NCBI GenBank assembly: GCA_963764715.1
Contig: CAVXTP010000022.1
Coordinates: 480,001-544,000, forward strand
Length of the DNA: 64,000 nucleotides
Direction: 5' to 3'
Source: an uncultured Acidobacteriota bacterium
Lineage (GTDB): Bacteria; Acidobacteriota; Thermoanaerobaculia; UBA5066; Gp7-AA6
Translations under genes and position numbers: made by a program
Shown: piece after piece, positions 1 to 4,803 of the stretch
Layout: each line of letters starts with the position of its first letter
How positions within the stretch are numbered: the first letter of the stretch is position 1
Notes under the pieces: generated by a model
The model's input: only the letters and a program-made list of their open reading frames with translations
The model's database searches: none
What the model was told of the DNA's origin: nothing

Positions 1-917
1 GGAGTCGAGATGTTGTTGAAGAGCCCGATCGTGTGGTGGTCGACCCGCGCGCCCTGGACGGCGAAGTTGAGATCCGGGTTCTGGAACCCCGGAATCGGCT
101 CGCCCGCATCGACCGGCACCGGTGAGCCCCAGAAGTTGGTATCCCGGAACCAGAGCACGGAGGTCGTCATCTTCGTCTGCCCGAACGTGTTGTCGAACGA
201 GAGCCGGAGCTGCTCGCGCGTGAAGTCCGTGCGCTCCTGCCAGCCTCCGCCCTGGGCGATCGAGCCGTTCAGCCGGATGGCGAAGTCGGGATTCACCTGG
301 GTCCCGACGTTGACGTCGCCCCAGCCCTGGGCGAAGGCGCCGAAGCCCCCGACCGTCGCGCTGCCCCAGGTGGTTCCGCCCGTGTGGGACCGGGTGAAGA
401 TCTGCACCATCCCGGCGAAGGCCGACGTGCCGTACAGCGTGCCCTGGGGACCGCGGACGATCTCGATCCGGTCGATGTCGTCGACCGGAATCATCGCGAG
501 GTTGGGATTGAACGGCCCGCCGACCGGCACGCCGTCGAGGGTGATCATGAGGGCGTCGAACTCCTTGATGCCGTACACCCCGATGTTCGGCAGGCGCGGG
601 CCGTTGTCGGAGCCGTTGCCGGTGTCGATGCCGACGACGTTTTGCAGGGCGTCGGCGAGCGTGCGGGTGCCCCGGCGGCGAAGCTCCTCGCCGCTGACGA
701 CGCTGACCGCGTTCGGGATCTCGAGGACCTCCTCGGAAACCTTGGTGGCCGAAACGACGACGTCCTCCTCGAACGACGGGTTCGTGGCCGACGAGGGCGC
801 CGGAGTCGGCGAAGGCGTGGGCGCCGGGGTCGTGGTCTGCCCGCTCAGGGCGGCGCCCGAGCCGAGCAGGATGGCCGTCAACGCGCCGGCGAGCCGGCGC
901 GCAATTCTCCACTTCAT
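1..917 (-). CDS. TonB-dependent receptor, N-terminal part (runs off the window)
   Basis: Not in the ORF track; read by hand. AAGGAG RBS, then MKWRIARRLAGALTAILLGSG signal peptide, TonB-box-like EEDVVVSATK and plug motif IDRIEIVRGPQGTLYG. Confidence 0.9.
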   Translation of the reverse strand, partial: MKWRIARRLAGALTAILLGSGAALSGQTTTPAPTPSPTPAPSSATNPSFEEDVVVSATKVSEEVLEIPNAVSVVSGEELRRRGTRTLADALQNVVGIDTGNGSDNGPRLPNIGVYGIKEFDALMITLDGVPVGGPFNPNLAMIPVDDIDRIEIVRGPQGTLYGTSAFAGMVQIFTRSHTGGTTWGSATVGGFGAFAQGWGDVNVGTQVNPDFAIRLNGSIAQGGGWQERTDFTREQLRLSFDNTFGQTKMTTSVLWFRDTNFWGSPVPVDAGEPIPGFQNPDLNFAVQGARVDHHTIGLFNNIST

Positions 918-918
918 G

Positions 919-970
919 GACTTCTCCTTCGAATTTGAATTGGGACGAAGCCGCGGGAACGGAGAAGGTC
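919..970 (-). promoter_or_regulatory. RBS-sequestering hairpin between the PLRL ORF stop codon and the TonB receptor start
   Basis: On the mRNA, GACCUUCUCC-G-UUC (970-957, starting at the G of the UAG stop) pairs with GAA-GGAGAAG-UC (930-919), which contains the AAGGAG SD. Confidence 0.6.
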
Positions 971-1641
971 TAAAGGCGGAGAGGAAGAGGCGGCGGGATG
1001 GGGACGGCGGCTTCGCGCCGCGCGGCGGGGGACGGCGCGACGGCGGAGCGAGCACCGATTCTCGACGGCGCCGGCGGGCCGAAGGCGCCGGGGTCGGGCT
1101 CCTCGGCGTCGCCGTGCGCGGCCCGGCGCTCGGACCACGCGGGCTCGCGCCCCAGGCTCTGATCCAGGAAATCTTCGGCGTCGAACTCCGCGAGCGCCTC
1201 GCGAGTCCACCACTCCGCCGCACCGCGCGTCAGTCCGGCGCCGTCGGGGCCCGCGCCGGCGACGATCGCGAACCGCGCGCTCACGAGAACGACGCGCTCC
1301 TCGCCGGGCTCCCCGTCCCGTCCCCTCCGCAGGCCCAGCCGCGCTCGGGTTGTCGCGACGTCCGGGACCCGCCAGGCGTGACCCGAGAGGCACGCAGGCA
1401 TTTCGCCCGTCAGCCGGATGGGAAACGTGCGGCCGTCGTCGAGCGACAGCACGAGCTCGCCCTCGTGCTCGCGGTCCCGGTCGCACGGCGCGGTCCACGA
1501 CGCCTCGACGGTCGTTCCCGCCGAAAACGACGCTGCCGCGCCGGGGAACCGGAAGCCTTCGGCGGCCGCGGCGAGCGCGCACGCCAGGAGGCCGAGGACG
1601 CCGACGGCGAGCGTCCGGGGTCGGAGCATTGACCGGGACAT
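970..1641 (-). CDS. Secreted Ig-like-domain protein ending in PLRL (paralog 1)
   Basis: Signal peptide; motifs LSLDDGRTFPIR, WRVP and EWW shared with 1868-2557; TAGAAT 8 nt before ATG 1641. Confidence 0.75.
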   Translation of the reverse strand: MSRSMLRPRTLAVGVLGLLACALAAAAEGFRFPGAAASFSAGTTVEASWTAPCDRDREHEGELVLSLDDGRTFPIRLTGEMPACLSGHAWRVPDVATTRARLGLRRGRDGEPGEERVVLVSARFAIVAGAGPDGAGLTRGAAEWWTREALAEFDAEDFLDQSLGREPAWSERRAAHGDAEEPDPGAFGPPAPSRIGARSAVAPSPAARREAAVPIPPPLPLRL

Positions 1642-1695
1642 TTCGGGAGATTCTAAGGGAGCCCCGGCGCAAACGGCACGACGATTCGCTGGCCG

Positions 1696-1738
1696 AAGAA
1701 AAAGGCGGCCCGTGCGGACGGAGGGCCGCACGAGCCGC
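1696..1738 (-). terminator. Intrinsic terminator downstream of PLRL paralog 2
   Basis: Minus strand GCGGCTCGTGCGG-loop-CCGCACGGGCCGC followed by CTTTTTCTT. Confidence 0.7.
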
Positions 1739-1867
1739 ATGAAAGACCGGGATGAGCTCGGCGAAAAGGACGTGAGATCAGCCCGGGAAAACGTTCGCGG
1801 TGCGGCGCCTCACGAGGCGCGCGCCGCGCTCGCCATCCCGGACCGAAGCTCCCGACCGAAGAGGGGT

Positions 1868-2557
1868 CTAGAGCCGCAGCGGAGCGGCGGCGACGGGGCG
1901 GAAGGAGAGAACGGACCCGCCGCGAGGAGCGGAGCCGGCGGAATGCGCGATGCCGACGACCGCTCGGCCGATCTCCCGCCCGGTGGCCGGCGACGGGGCG
2001 CCGGCGATCTCGGTCGCGACGAAGGGGACGAGGATGCGTCCGGCCGCGGAGGACATCGCGCCGCCGAACAGGTCCTCCGCCGTCAGCACGGTCGCTTCGG
2101 GGGGCGTCCACCATTCGGCGGTCCGCCGGTAGAGCTCCTGGACCCGGCCGTCGACGTCCGACAGGATCCGGAAGTCGCCGCTGACGGCCCGGAGGCGTTC
2201 GGTCCTCCCCAGACCCTCGGATCCCGTGCGGAGCGCGAGGCGAGCTCGGCCCGTCGCCAGCGCGGGCACACGCCAGAGGTAGCTGGTCGCGCACGGGTGG
2301 AGCTCGTTGGACACGCGGATCGGGAACGTGAGACCGCCGTCGAGCGAGAGGACGACCTCGGCTTCGTCGGCGCTATCGCCGGTCGCGCTCGCGCTCGCGC
2401 AGGCCGACGCCCAGCGCACCTCGACGATCGATCCCGGAGCGAGGGATTCGCCGCGGCCCGGCGAGAGAAACGGCGACGACACCTCGCCACGCGCCGCCAA
2501 CGCGGCCGCGAGCGAGACGAGGACCGCGAGCCCCGTCCTCCATCGCCCCGATGACAT
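1868..2557 (-). CDS. Secreted Ig-like-domain protein ending in PLRL (paralog 2)
   Basis: Signal peptide; motifs LSPGRGESL..VRW, LSLDGGLTFPIR, SYLWRVP, EWW; TATAGT 7 nt before ATG 2557. Confidence 0.75.
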   Translation of the reverse strand: MSSGRWRTGLAVLVSLAAALAARGEVSSPFLSPGRGESLAPGSIVEVRWASACASASATGDSADEAEVVLSLDGGLTFPIRVSNELHPCATSYLWRVPALATGRARLALRTGSEGLGRTERLRAVSGDFRILSDVDGRVQELYRRTAEWWTPPEATVLTAEDLFGGAMSSAAGRILVPFVATEIAGAPSPATGREIGRAVVGIAHSAGSAPRGGSVLSFRPVAAAPLRL

Positions 2558-2600
2558 TGCGCGGACTATAACCCGCAGGGGACTGTTCCGGCCAACGCGA

Positions 2601-2990
2601 TCAGTGAGGAGCGGGCGTGGGGCCGGGAGCCGCATACCCTTCGCGGCGCGTGCCGTCCGGGTTCAGAGGCGCCGGGCCGCAGATGTAGGCCTCCCCCAGG
2701 CGGCCGTCGCCACGCACCAGCACCGTGTCGGCGCCCGCGAGCACGGCCTGCGTCCGGAAGTAGTCGGGCACCTGGGAGGGAGCCGGGACCAGGACCGGGT
2801 CGTACTGCGGCTCGATGTTCTTGACGAATTTGCAGGTTCCCTGGACCTTCTCCGCGTCCTCGGTGAGGCGGACGGCGTACTTGCCCTTCGTCGTCGCCTC
2901 CTCCTTGGCCTTGTCGGCTTCCTTCATGCTCGTGCAGGCGGCCATCACGAGGATCGCCGCCAGGCCGGCCGCCGCCGTTCTCATCTTCAT
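2601..2990 (-). CDS. Small lipoprotein (possibly DUF4156-like)
   Basis: MKMRTAAAGLAAILVMAAC lipobox; CKFV...GADTV...AYIC pattern. Confidence 0.65.
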   Translation of the reverse strand: MKMRTAAAGLAAILVMAACTSMKEADKAKEEATTKGKYAVRLTEDAEKVQGTCKFVKNIEPQYDPVLVPAPSQVPDYFRTQAVLAGADTVLVRGDGRLGEAYICGPAPLNPDGTRREGYAAPGPTPAPH

Positions 2991-3327
2991 GACGTCAGTA
3001 TCGCACCGATCGCCACCTCGTAATTCCCCCAGTCGATCGCGGGACCCGCGACGGGTACATTCCGCCGGTCCGGCCGGGCCGGTCCGAGTGGTCGGCCCCC
3101 GGACGTCCGTAGAGTTTTTGCTCTCGCGAGCATCGGGCGCGGCGACAGCCGCGCCCACCTTTTTCCGATCAACTCGAGACCTGGGGCCTCGGCAATTCGA
3201 GAGAAATGTGATTCGGCGGTCACTGGTCGGTCCCCGGGGGATTTCTTCGCTGTCCATGGGGCGGACACAATCCGTCGGGATTGCGTGCCGGCGAAATGTG
3301 CGTCCCCATCCGGCTGTTGAAGGCGGC

Positions 3328-3864
3328 ATGCCCATCACGGACGGAGGCCCGCTTTCCGGGCGGACGTGCCCGGCGTTTCGTTTACTGACCCTCCTTTCCG
3401 CCGGCTTCGCGCTGGCGGCAACCGCCGCCCCCGTACCGGCCGAAAAACCCGACGTCCGGGCACGGATCGTCGCCGTCCCCAGCCAGCCCGCCGGCGATCG
3501 GACCGTCGTCACCGTGGAGCTCTCGATCGGCCCGGGGTGGCACGTCAACAGCCACACTCCTCTGGACGCCTTTCTCATCCCGACCGACCTTTCGCTCGCG
3601 GCGTCGGCCGGCACCCTCTCGCCTGTTCGTTACCCCGAACCCCGGGAACGGAATTTCTCCTTTTCCGAGAAGCCGCTCAGCGTGTACGAGGGAACCGTGA
3701 GTCTCGAAATGGACCTCCAGCTTCCGACGGCGAGCGGAAAGGTCCATCTCTCGGGGAACCTCACGTATCAGGCCTGCAACGATCGGCAATGCTTCGCCCC
3801 GGCGACTCTCTCGCTCGAATCGAACATCACGACCACGGACGCCCCGCCGTCCTCCGGCCCGTGA
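3328..3864 (+). CDS. Stand-alone DsbD N-terminal domain protein
   Basis: Signal peptide; GWHVNS, VRYP, VYEG and YQACNDRQCFAP motifs of nDsbD. Confidence 0.85.
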   Translation: MPITDGGPLSGRTCPAFRLLTLLSAGFALAATAAPVPAEKPDVRARIVAVPSQPAGDRTVVTVELSIGPGWHVNSHTPLDAFLIPTDLSLAASAGTLSPVRYPEPRERNFSFSEKPLSVYEGTVSLEMDLQLPTASGKVHLSGNLTYQACNDRQCFAPATLSLESNITTTDAPPSSGP

Positions 3865-4068
3865 GACCGAAGCTCCTTTCGCTTGTCGTCGCGAAGACGC
3901 CCGCGCGTTCCCTCCATGGGACACGCCGCCCCCGCCGGAGGTCACCCTGGTCGATCCCCGGAGCGCCGATGGTTCGGCTACAGGTCTCGCGAATGGGCGG
4001 TTTGCAATGATTTCACCGATGGTCGAAAGTGGCCCTGCGATTGCAGGAGCTCGATCTCTCGAAAACTG

Positions 4069-4803
4069 ATGCAGCCAGGGCGAGGGTCCGGCAAGGGGTT
4101 CCGACGGGGCATGGCACTTGGCGGCCTGCTGTCGCTCCTTCTTGGGATCCTCGGACCGGGCGCAGCGCTCGCCGCCGACCCCGCCGGAAGTGTCGATTTG
4201 CATCGGCTCGACGGCAACCCCCTCGCCCTCGACGCTCTCAGGGGCAGGGTGGTCATTCTCGATTTCTGGGCCTCCTGGTGCGTACCGTGCCGGACGAGCT
4301 TTCCGTTCTTCGACGCTCTCCAGCGAAAGTACGCGTCCCAGGGGCTGACCGTCATCGGACTGACGCTCGAGACCAGCGAGCACACGATCAAAGCCTTCCT
4401 CGATACCGTGCCCGTCGACTTCACCATCGCCCGCGATCCGACGGGACGGGCCGGCGTGGCGTTCGACGTCGTCGCCATGCCCACGACGTTGCTCCTCGAC
4501 CGGGAGGGCCGGGTGGCCGCTCGCTTCGAAGGAGGCGACAAGGAGACTCACGCGAAGCTCGAGGCGGCGGTCGCGCTCCTCCTCGCCGGCGATGCCCTGC
4601 CGAAGGGAACGGGAGTGCGCGTCTCGGGGGATCTCGAAGCGACGGGCACGATCAAGGCGTGGCAACGCGGATACCTCGCCGACCCGATCATGAGCCTCGA
4701 CGGCGACCCGGCGAGTCGCATCTTCAAAGAACACATCCACGCGAGCAAGGAGGCGGCCGCCGGCGACGGCGGCGCGGCGGGGGGCGGCTGTGGCTGCAAC
4801 TAA
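4069..4803 (+). CDS. TlpA/ResA-like thioredoxin fused to DUF4266
   Basis: DFWASWCVPC thioredoxin motif; C-terminal KAWQRGYLADPIM...GGGCGCN DUF4266 signature. Start is 4069 or 4111. Confidence 0.85.
   Translation: MQPGRGSGKGFRRGMALGGLLSLLLGILGPGAALAADPAGSVDLHRLDGNPLALDALRGRVVILDFWASWCVPCRTSFPFFDALQRKYASQGLTVIGLTLETSEHTIKAFLDTVPVDFTIARDPTGRAGVAFDVVAMPTTLLLDREGRVAARFEGGDKETHAKLEAAVALLLAGDALPKGTGVRVSGDLEATGTIKAWQRGYLADPIMSLDGDPASRIFKEHIHASKEAAAGDGGAAGGGCGCN

Follow-up and report, generated by a model that had tools for sequence, protein, structure and literature searches.

A conserved P-x-R-x tail at a UAG stop codon and a hairpin over the next Shine-Dalgarno sequence: a candidate leader of TonB-dependent receptor genes in Acidobacteriota

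Exported leaders and the locus described here

Exported leader proteins that stall ribosomes and so unmask the Shine-Dalgarno (SD) sequence of a downstream gene are already known, and one of them stands before the gene for a TonB-dependent receptor. The present text concerns a leader-type open reading frame (ORF) of 223 amino acids (aa) and the TonB-dependent receptor gene that follows it, both on the minus strand of a stretch of 64,000 nucleotides (nt) from an uncultured Acidobacteriota bacterium (assembly GCA_963764715.1, contig CAVXTP010000022.1, positions 480,001 to 544,000). This whole stretch is called the window, and positions are given in its numbering. The leader (973-1641) ends in IPPPLPLRL, its UAG stop codon occupies 970-972, and the receptor ATG lies at 915-917, behind the gap of 52 nt that the initial annotation had given and with which the coordinates agree.

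SecM, VemP and MifM are exported or inserted leaders whose arrest opens a structure masking an SD sequence and is thought to be released by pulling force. In classical translational coupling the downstream SD sequence is paired with the end of the upstream cistron and is opened by upstream translation. TnaC is a short cytoplasmic leader that arrests at termination and senses a small molecule in the ribosomal tunnel. To our knowledge, the described exported stalling leaders (SecM, VemP, MifM, RAPP/CruR and CutF) use few motifs, and all of them stall during elongation.

The closest described systems are leaders of the DUF2946 type, CutF of Rhodobacter capsulatus and CruR of Bordetella pertussis, which as outlined in their reports carry a Sec signal peptide, have a part that senses in the periplasm, and combine a stall motif at the C-terminus with an SD-shielding stem-loop. 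Copper binding by CutF is described as delaying its own co-translational export, which opens the stem-loop before cutO; CruR is described as stalling at RAPP and controlling a TonB-dependent receptor (PMC12992588). For monitoring substrates of the RAPP class the same source gives elongation arrest with Pro-tRNA in the A site (PMC12992588).

The leader of the window has in common with CutF and CruR a signal peptide (recognized here by a heuristic) and a stem-loop masking the SD sequence of the next gene on the same strand, and with CruR also the kind of downstream gene, a TonB-dependent receptor. It differs from both in that it lacks DUF2946, has an immunoglobulin (Ig)-like fold and about 220 aa instead of the fewer than 150 aa with a Cys/His motif outlined for them, and carries neither RAPP nor a conserved PP motif in its last 15 residues; its last four residues abut the stop codon, the type of which is itself conserved. 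Because the conserved residues abut the stop, any pause on this leader would fall at termination and not in elongation. With regard to SecM, VemP, MifM and the RAPP class, the downstream gene is not a Sec/YidC component, the motif differs and a stop codon follows the motif, whereas the fixed linker length and the signal peptide would be compatible with the same release by export-driven pulling. As to classical coupling, the masking arm lies after the stop codon and not in the coding sequence, and an invariant tetrapeptide and a fixed stop codon are added.

In the literature searched, no description was found of the family, its motif, the position of the motif against the stop, the selection on the stop codon or the ruler-like linker; a search for 'PLRL' at a C-terminus likewise gave nothing relevant. 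The lists of CutF-like and RAPP-like proteins in the supplements of the respective papers could in principle include relatives, but the filters stated for them (fewer than 150 aa, a PP or RAPP motif) exclude the family.

The C-terminal tail, the stop codon and the linker

A word-indexed search gave 17 close homologs of the leader. With a profile run against 1.84 billion representatives, 2124 proteins, mostly from uncultured Acidobacteriota, were recovered at E<=1e-3, and 156 of them passed E<=1e-30. The best 150 profile matches are mostly of 200-250 aa, the remainder being giant proteins of 1200-6500 aa. DNA loci were taken from Acidobacteriota/Thermoanaerobaculia assemblies (28), from a sample of the phylum (29 loci; 401 genomes, with a match in 36) and from metagenomes (79). 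Conservation was counted in a genome set of 44 complete genes (the two of the window and 42 from the 28 genome loci) and in a metagenome set of 59 unique genes, together the 103 family genes referred to below, and also in 123 cluster representatives, proteins of 150-300 aa with less than 50% mutual identity. Locus L034 (unpublished genome G024) was counted only in the tally of stop codons of distant members, and nothing rests on it.

The C-terminal tetrapeptide P-L-R-L of the window leader (973-984), which the initial annotation had singled out as PLR[LI], is conserved at the protein level. Pro at position -4 and Arg at -2 are both invariant in the genome set (44/44), where position -3 is Leu in 41 genes and R, M and K once each, and the last residue is L in 34, E in 4, I in 3 and V, T and Q once each. 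The P-x-R-x end is found in 112 and the penultimate Arg in 122 of the 123 cluster representatives; in the metagenome set the corresponding counts are 56/59 and 58/59. The consensus across the 103 genes is P-[LMRK]-R-x. Information content at the last four positions is 3.8, 3.2, 4.3 and 2.2 bits, in sequences pre-selected for R at -2, and about 1 bit at each of positions -5 to -24, which are rich in A, P, S and R (P 17%, R 12%). The PPP at -9 to -7 of the window leader is not kept; the family retains just P-x-R-x at the very end, and RAPP is absent. Synonymous codons vary at each position (in the genome set, Pro at -4: CCG 23, CCC 15, CCT 6; Leu at -3: CTG 30, CTC 5, CTT 5, TTG 1; Arg at -2: CGC 21, CGG 17, CGA 6), from which it follows that the constraint acts on the protein and not on an RNA or DNA motif.

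Across the family the last residue is L in 46%, E in 32%, Q in 6%, V in 4% and I in 3%; ends of the type aliphatic/Met-Arg-aliphatic (PLRL, PLRV, PLRI, PMRV) occur in over half of the members, and about 40% end in Glu or Gln. The idea of the tail as a ligand of PDZ domains or of tail-specific proteases was dropped on account of this last figure. All 17 sequences with R or K at -3 end in Glu (P-[RK]-R-E); Leu or Met at -3 goes with Leu, Glu, Gln or Val. A mutual-information scan, which is a weak test, found no column of the folded domain covarying in a complementary manner with the class of the last residue, and coevolution of tail and domain was no longer considered. The metagenome gene without R at -2 (L123) has PSFSNS-TAG as its end, immediately followed by the conserved loop and SD sequence, and appears to be a deletion that took out the tail together with the anti-SD arm. 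Among 2456 filtered ORFs of the window's own genome no other gene with the tail and TAG was found, with a filter that missed both family genes too.

The stop codon is conserved as well. The 103 family genes end in TAG 96 times, in TAA 6 times and in TGA once (genome set: TAG 42, TAA 1, TGA 1; metagenome set: TAG 54, TAA 5, TGA 0). In the window's own genome, with a guanine-plus-cytosine (GC) content of 70%, ORFs of at least 200 aa end in TGA 1114 times (58%), in TAG 634 times (33%) and in TAA 158 times. Other ORFs of the genome-set loci have TAG 38, TAA 6 and TGA 60 times, those of the metagenome-set loci TAG 16, TAA 8 and TGA 34 times, and the receptor gene at the same loci TAG 14, TAA 3 and TGA 6 times, the window genome's own receptor ending in TGA. 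An A follows the stop codon in the window and in 65/103 family genes (TAGA), compared with 119/634 TAG stops genome-wide.

Several causes of the preference for UAG were tried and rejected. A codon context of Leu or Arg does not account for it, genes of the same genome with a terminal Leu, or with Arg as the last residue but one, showing the ordinary mix of stops and no TAG bias. Nor does pairing of UAG with a CUA before the AUG explain it, because the stop codon is wholly unpaired in 14/30 minimum free energy (MFE) folds and several relatives with UCAUG at the start, suited to pairing with UGA, still carry TAG. A +1 slippage of the prfB type at CUU-UAG was discarded, CUU being used by just 3/44 members. 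Apart from the choice of stop, a product that joins leader and receptor by read-through or fusion was rejected too: the two are in different frames, and what follows the stop shows no conservation at the protein level.

The leader protein was modelled with AlphaFold2 from 125 aligned sequences (mean predicted local distance difference test, pLDDT, 80.7). Residues 1-27 (1561-1641) form a signal-peptide-like N-terminus, with a signal-like helix at residues 9-24; a hydrophobic 11-mer after R/K is present in 106/121 full-length-like members, by a heuristic and not by a dedicated signal-peptide predictor. Residues 28-162 (1156-1560, pLDDT 90-98) hold an Ig-like beta-sandwich (residues 29-127, pLDDT about 97) and a short extension with two short helices (residues 147-162). 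They are followed by an A/P/S/R-rich linker (residues 163-219; 985-1155) modelled as disordered, with pLDDT 48-60 at residues 163-210; confidence rises again in the tail (pLDDT 77 at residues 211-220).

The alignment of 125 sequences has a mean column identity of 27% and 8 invariant columns (E60, E62, G70, P93, R105, E115, E143 and R222). The linker is barely alignable in sequence, yet its length holds constant within about 2 aa: in 111/112 representatives, 78-85 aa separate the EW motif (E143) from the C-terminus (interquartile range 81-82). A disordered segment of about 57-60 residues is roughly enough to span the exit tunnel plus the translocon.

The initial annotation had described a secreted Ig-like protein with two Cys. 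The signal-like N-terminus, the Ig-like fold, the linker and the PLRL end are borne out; the Cys pair (C53/C84), present in the window leader, is missing from part of the family and therefore does not define it. A lipoprotein was ruled out, the LLAC box not being conserved across the family. The family is unnamed: neither Pfam nor NCBIfam gave a passing match for the leader or its paralog, Pfam at E<=1 gave the leader a sub-threshold match to SEF14_adhesin alone and none to DUF2946, Foldseek against the PDB returned generic Ig, fibronectin type III and lytic polysaccharide monooxygenase-like folds and nothing more specific, and the protein atlas gave no match at >=0.9. The Ig-like domain contains a single Asp-box-like SLDxGxTF. 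The giant proteins (1200-6500 aa) lack the tail and repeat the Ig-like module of residues 29-104, which includes this Asp-box-like sequence, 5-35 times.

The hairpin over the receptor SD sequence and the order of genes

In the MFE fold of the window junction, G3-A4-C5 and U7-C11 (the U of UAG being position 1) pair with G47-C54, which contain the SD sequence GGAGAAG. The hairpin has 8 pairs and a 5-bp inner helix, and the centroid fold is CUUCUCC/GGAGAAG. Its 5' arm is a CU-rich anti-SD tract that starts at the G of the stop codon (961-970); its 3' arm is the receptor SD GGAGAAG with the spacer (919-927). That a tract adjoining the stop pairs with the receptor SD, as had been noticed in the window alone, is thus seen in its fold, and it recurs in the relatives. 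Of 30 leader-receptor junctions, 28 have the SD mostly paired within the 25 nt that follow the U of the stop (mean probability 0.78), and the mean fold z over the 30 is -2.48, with 22/30 below -2. Among 94 approximate same-strand junctions of 45-80 nt from the window's own genome, used as control, the mean probability is 0.29, and 29% exceed 0.5. The pairing probability is above 0.5 in 43/47 metagenome junctions, a number that includes a few of the par2 type (paralogs treated below) with a doubtful GTG start.

The two arms covary. Own 24-nt arms pair at -18.5 kcal/mol and swapped arms at -15.9 kcal/mol, and 0/10,000 permutations match the own value; the advantage of own arms was repeated in the metagenome set and in 28 non-redundant junctions (0/20,000). 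The outer parts (the stop codon with the next 7 nt versus the 9 nt that precede the AUG) covary too (14/20,000; non-redundant 46/20,000). Covariation of the hairpin, a test that the initial annotation had proposed, holds by arm swaps. MAFFT with RNAalifold on 29 junctions gave no consensus structure, and a subset of 11 sequences aligned no better; since bulges shift the register in the alignment, folds of single sequences and arm-swap tests were used.

The geometry is narrow. In 70 unique junctions the SD core is paired in 60, its partners having median positions 9-12 as counted from the stop's U and, in 57/60, lying within 20 nt; the hairpin arm starts at median position 3, and the distance from stop to ATG is 53-72 nt in 29/30 junctions. 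The same design is built from other letters in other lineages, as UAGAAC/GUUCUA in L012, GAUCUCUC/GAGAGAUC in L009 and, in the low-GC lineage L040, AAUCCUCC/GGAGGAUU. In L044, the stop codon of which is UGA, the pairing is UGAUC.../...GAUCA, UGA pairing with UCA. With its masking arm placed behind the stop codon, the hairpin would open only to a ribosome standing at the stop or adjacent to it. A ribosome whose A site holds a stop codon covers about 13 nt, counted from that codon's U. By this general geometry the partners of the SD core would fall inside the mRNA channel of a terminating ribosome; its footprint would equal the anti-SD tract, and the start about 55 nt away would still be free for a 30S subunit to bind.

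No T-run follows the stem, and the leader-receptor hairpin is for this reason not an intrinsic terminator. An RNase III site was rejected, the stems being of 10-14 bp with bulges, as measured against the size such sites generally need. Rfam gave nothing relevant for 700-3000 of the window. A sigma70 scan of 700-3200 gave 0 sites with 0 expected, which is uninformative for the phylum Acidobacteriota.

The receptor gene is represented in the window by its N-terminal 305 aa (3-917; Plug domain, E 1e-22). The full receptor has 727 aa (L031:8737-10917(-)), with matches to PF07715 Plug (E 1.4e-22) and to the PF00593 barrel (E 5.2e-30); among NCBIfam models specific for a substrate, none reaches its cut-off. 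A convergent prolyl oligopeptidase gene comes next, and the receptor thus ends the unit. The kind of downstream gene, which the initial annotation had read from this one locus, is conserved: by tblastn a receptor ortholog (27-94% identity) stands directly after the family gene in 24/28 genome loci. For the orthologs that come behind the family gene in relatives, identities of 45-93% are recorded. Distant members in other families of the phylum also precede receptors, 25-30% identical to that of the window. The leader-receptor module has been duplicated repeatedly within genomes; in L009, L010, L022 and L025 two leader-receptor pairs stand head to head, with a third copy, of the par2 type, nearby. 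A complex prediction of receptor residues 45-727 with leader residues 28-223 gave a score of 0.00 with controls not run, and is evidence neither way.

How the locus may work

We put the chances at about even that these features serve hairpin-mediated translational coupling at the stop codon, with PxRx-UAG lengthening the dwell of the ribosome at termination. In the free mRNA the CU-rich tract that begins at the leader stop would pair with the receptor SD and hide it. A ribosome with the leader stop in its A site would cover the tract and melt the hairpin, and a 30S subunit could load about 55 nt downstream. The P-[LMRK]-R-x end and a stop other than UGA, mostly the UAG read by release factor 1 (RF1), would lengthen the dwell of the terminating ribosome. 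The fixed, disordered linker of about 57-60 aa would tie the tail to the exported Ig-like domain, and could pass on a pull that arises when this domain is exported, folds or binds a ligand, in the manner of SecM, CutF and CruR. We infer from the sequence comparisons, then, that the hairpin limits translation of the receptor, that the tail slows termination and that export or a ligand modulates it. The event is placed at termination because conservation falls on the final residues and the type of the stop is itself selected. The near-exclusion of UGA and the fixed linker length, both beyond what the initial annotation had noted, fit an event at that stage.

One molecular version of this coupling with a pause is suggested by insect antimicrobial peptides. 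According to the published outlines, apidaecin and drosocin, type II proline-rich antimicrobial peptides of 18-19 aa, occupy the tunnel oriented like a nascent chain, act in trans, and hold RF1 or release factor 2 (RF2) on the post-release ribosome at the stop codon. Their penultimate Arg is reported to bond the Gln of the release-factor GGQ motif, while the terminal carboxylate of the apidaecin type approaches the P-site tRNA's A76, and the C-terminal Val19 of drosocin is poorly ordered and shifts the CCA end of the tRNA. Apidaecin ends PRPPHPRL; as reported, R17A abolishes its activity and Pro16Leu is tolerated or better. Drosocin ends Ile17-Arg18-Val19, R18A abolishing its activity, R18K being tolerated or better and I17M giving a gain; its activity is described as independent of UAG versus UGA. 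The authors of that work regard action in cis as possible for such peptides, propose that cells may contain proteins with ends of this kind, and suggest that the C-terminal parts of cellular proteins might stay in the tunnel for a while once release has occurred.

The leader family shares with these peptides the penultimate Arg (44/44, 122/123 and 58/59 in the three sets), and its aliphatic/Met-Arg-aliphatic ends fit a warhead of Arg plus carboxylate. By this analogy the tail could be a built-in counterpart of apidaecin and drosocin that traps RF1 after release, a version that we hold to be doubtful. RF1 would cut the chain at UAG and the last residues would remain in the tunnel, the penultimate Arg contacting the Gln of the RF1 GGQ motif and the new carboxylate facing A76 of the P-site tRNA; the receptor SD would then stay open until the linker is pulled by Sec export, folding or ligand binding. 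The leader differs from the peptides in being a bacterial protein of 220 aa that would act in cis and lacks a conserved Pro/Arg-rich segment of about 8 residues, and in a terminal residue that is aliphatic in about half of the members and Glu in a third, its carboxylate being free by definition. The literature found on post-release trapping consists of antimicrobial-peptide and termination work only and holds no bacterial protein like the leader.

Several observations weigh against a pause that serves the receptor, or against the trap as its mechanism. The window hairpin, at -10.9 kcal/mol, is by itself not above chance when compared with shuffles (z -0.87, -1.66 and -0.57). More distant members are looser in their stops (TAG 13, TAA 4, TGA 3). 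The tandem paralog of the window (1871-2557; 229 aa, 40% identity to the leader over 139 aa), which defines the par2 type, also ends PLRL-UAG (stop at 1868-1870) with no coupled ORF behind it, and in about 28 loci par2-type paralogs followed by neither an SD nor an ORF retain T-P-L-R-L and TAG. Because they keep both without a following receptor, the tail and the stop have a role independent of the receptor, and the tail cannot serve receptor control alone; in these paralogs it could have a protein-level function, or the pause could serve the export of the protein itself. Only four tail residues are conserved, against the about eight needed by apidaecin (PRPPHPRL) and most of residues 11-19 needed by drosocin, and a third of the members end in Glu, whereas apidaecin Leu18 is reported to tolerate almost no change. 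Since apidaecin and drosocin trap RF2 as well, the analogy does not itself explain the avoidance of UGA. No RNA sequencing run with the locus was found, and DNA runs hold small shares of it.

A simpler account, in which coupling merely sets stoichiometry and P-x-R-x-COOH is a protein-level motif of the mature periplasmic protein, is possible though not probable. The tail would be a tethered peptide that binds the acidic Ig-like domain of its own protein or else a partner, or it would mark the protein for sorting or degradation, and UAG would be favoured just as the tight, non-leaky stop required beside the hairpin. The par2-type paralogs speak for it, with tail and TAG and no coupled ORF, as do the four invariant Glu (E60, E62, E115 and E143), which could receive the invariant Arg and in that respect count against a termination pause; so does the rise of pLDDT in the tail over that of the linker, which in the model could reflect docking of the tail on the folded domain. 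A disordered linker with a terminal short motif is moreover a common tethered-ligand design, and the 17/17 pairing of R/K at -3 with a terminal Glu reads as charge balance inside the tail. Yet a protein-level motif does not predict a single UGA in 103 stops, nor a 5' arm that starts at the stop codon, nor a linker constant within about 2 aa; the mutual-information scan, weak as a test, gave it no complementary domain column, and a terminal Leu or Glu is ill-suited to the pockets of PDZ class II or of tail-specific proteases. At the other extreme, the hairpin may have no part in translational control and be an element of mRNA stability or processing, or a matter of anti-SD-like composition, with the conservation of tail and stop unrelated to it. 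The chance-level fold of the window itself would fit, and any SD will pair with CU-rich tracts; we nevertheless regard this as very unlikely, since own arms beat swapped ones in two independent sets and in the non-redundant set, the pairing is rare in control junctions, the spacing of 53-72 nt is narrow, L040 (low GC) and L044 (UGA stop) keep the design with different letters, and no T-run follows the stem.

An arrest before hydrolysis, as in TnaC, SpeFL or PepNL, would also place the event at the stop codon: the PLRL-tRNA chain, perhaps with a metabolite or metal in the tunnel, would stop RF1 from hydrolysing the peptidyl-tRNA, and export and the Ig-like domain would be uninvolved. The conserved tail and stop identity agree with it, and the hairpin geometry suits a ribosome held on the stop codon. 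The known sensors of this kind, TnaC and SpeFL among them, are short peptides with conserved tunnel-lining residues, and the leader is long and exported and not a short cytoplasmic small-molecule sensor. Here just 4 conserved residues stand behind an exported protein of 220 aa with a conserved fold and a linker of fixed length, a design that looks made to link the tail with something outside the ribosome, and we think this explanation unlikely. Leaders that arrest termination are on record in SpeFL and in PepNL, a short peptide that, as its report outlines, arrests at UGA, the arrest being relieved by Trp-tRNA read-through. PepNL and the leader have in common that the identity of the stop codon matters, and since read-through by Trp-tRNA at UGA cancels the arrest of PepNL, avoidance of UGA by the leader family would be explained in the same way.

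The family is large, and has a four-residue motif exactly at the stop, selection on the stop codon and a ruler-like linker. If coupling with a termination pause is real, a termination-stage class would be added to the exported sensor leaders, and a direct handle would be gained on the control of a widespread receptor by these bacteria. If the pause is a post-release trap, it would be the first case of regulation by an arrest that follows release of the peptide, and would supply the cellular example predicted in the drosocin work; bacteria themselves may then use the release-factor-trapping chemistry that insects evolved as antibiotics.

Sequences around the par2-type paralog and upstream genes

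A conserved, highly structured element of about 120 nt lies 3' of the par2-type paralogs (MFE -40 to -78 kcal/mol per 125 nt). It occupies 1745-1867 on the minus strand of the window and the same position in about 28 loci (e.g. L004, L009, L014 and L072), regardless of whether a leader or a convergent receptor comes next, and has no match in Rfam. Its long stem ends CG(C/T)TTTCCC(C)GGG(AA), containing the palindrome TTCCCGGGAA, and is followed by a conserved TTCGCCGAGCTC box.

Between the par2 paralog and the leader, at 1705-1738 on the minus strand, a 13-bp GC-rich hairpin is followed by CTTTTTCTTC and resembles an intrinsic terminator. Because this terminator-like hairpin separates the two genes, the leader-receptor pair probably has its own promoter in the about 55 nt before 1641, or else the hairpin is an attenuator, as far as the sequence suggests. 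The hexamer TAGAAT stands 9 nt before the leader ATG.

Divergently upstream, on the plus strand, 2815-3864 encodes a protein with a DsbD_N domain (E 7e-12), and 3883-4803 is an ORF that, read from its translation alone, looks thioredoxin-like and has a Gly/Cys-rich tail end.

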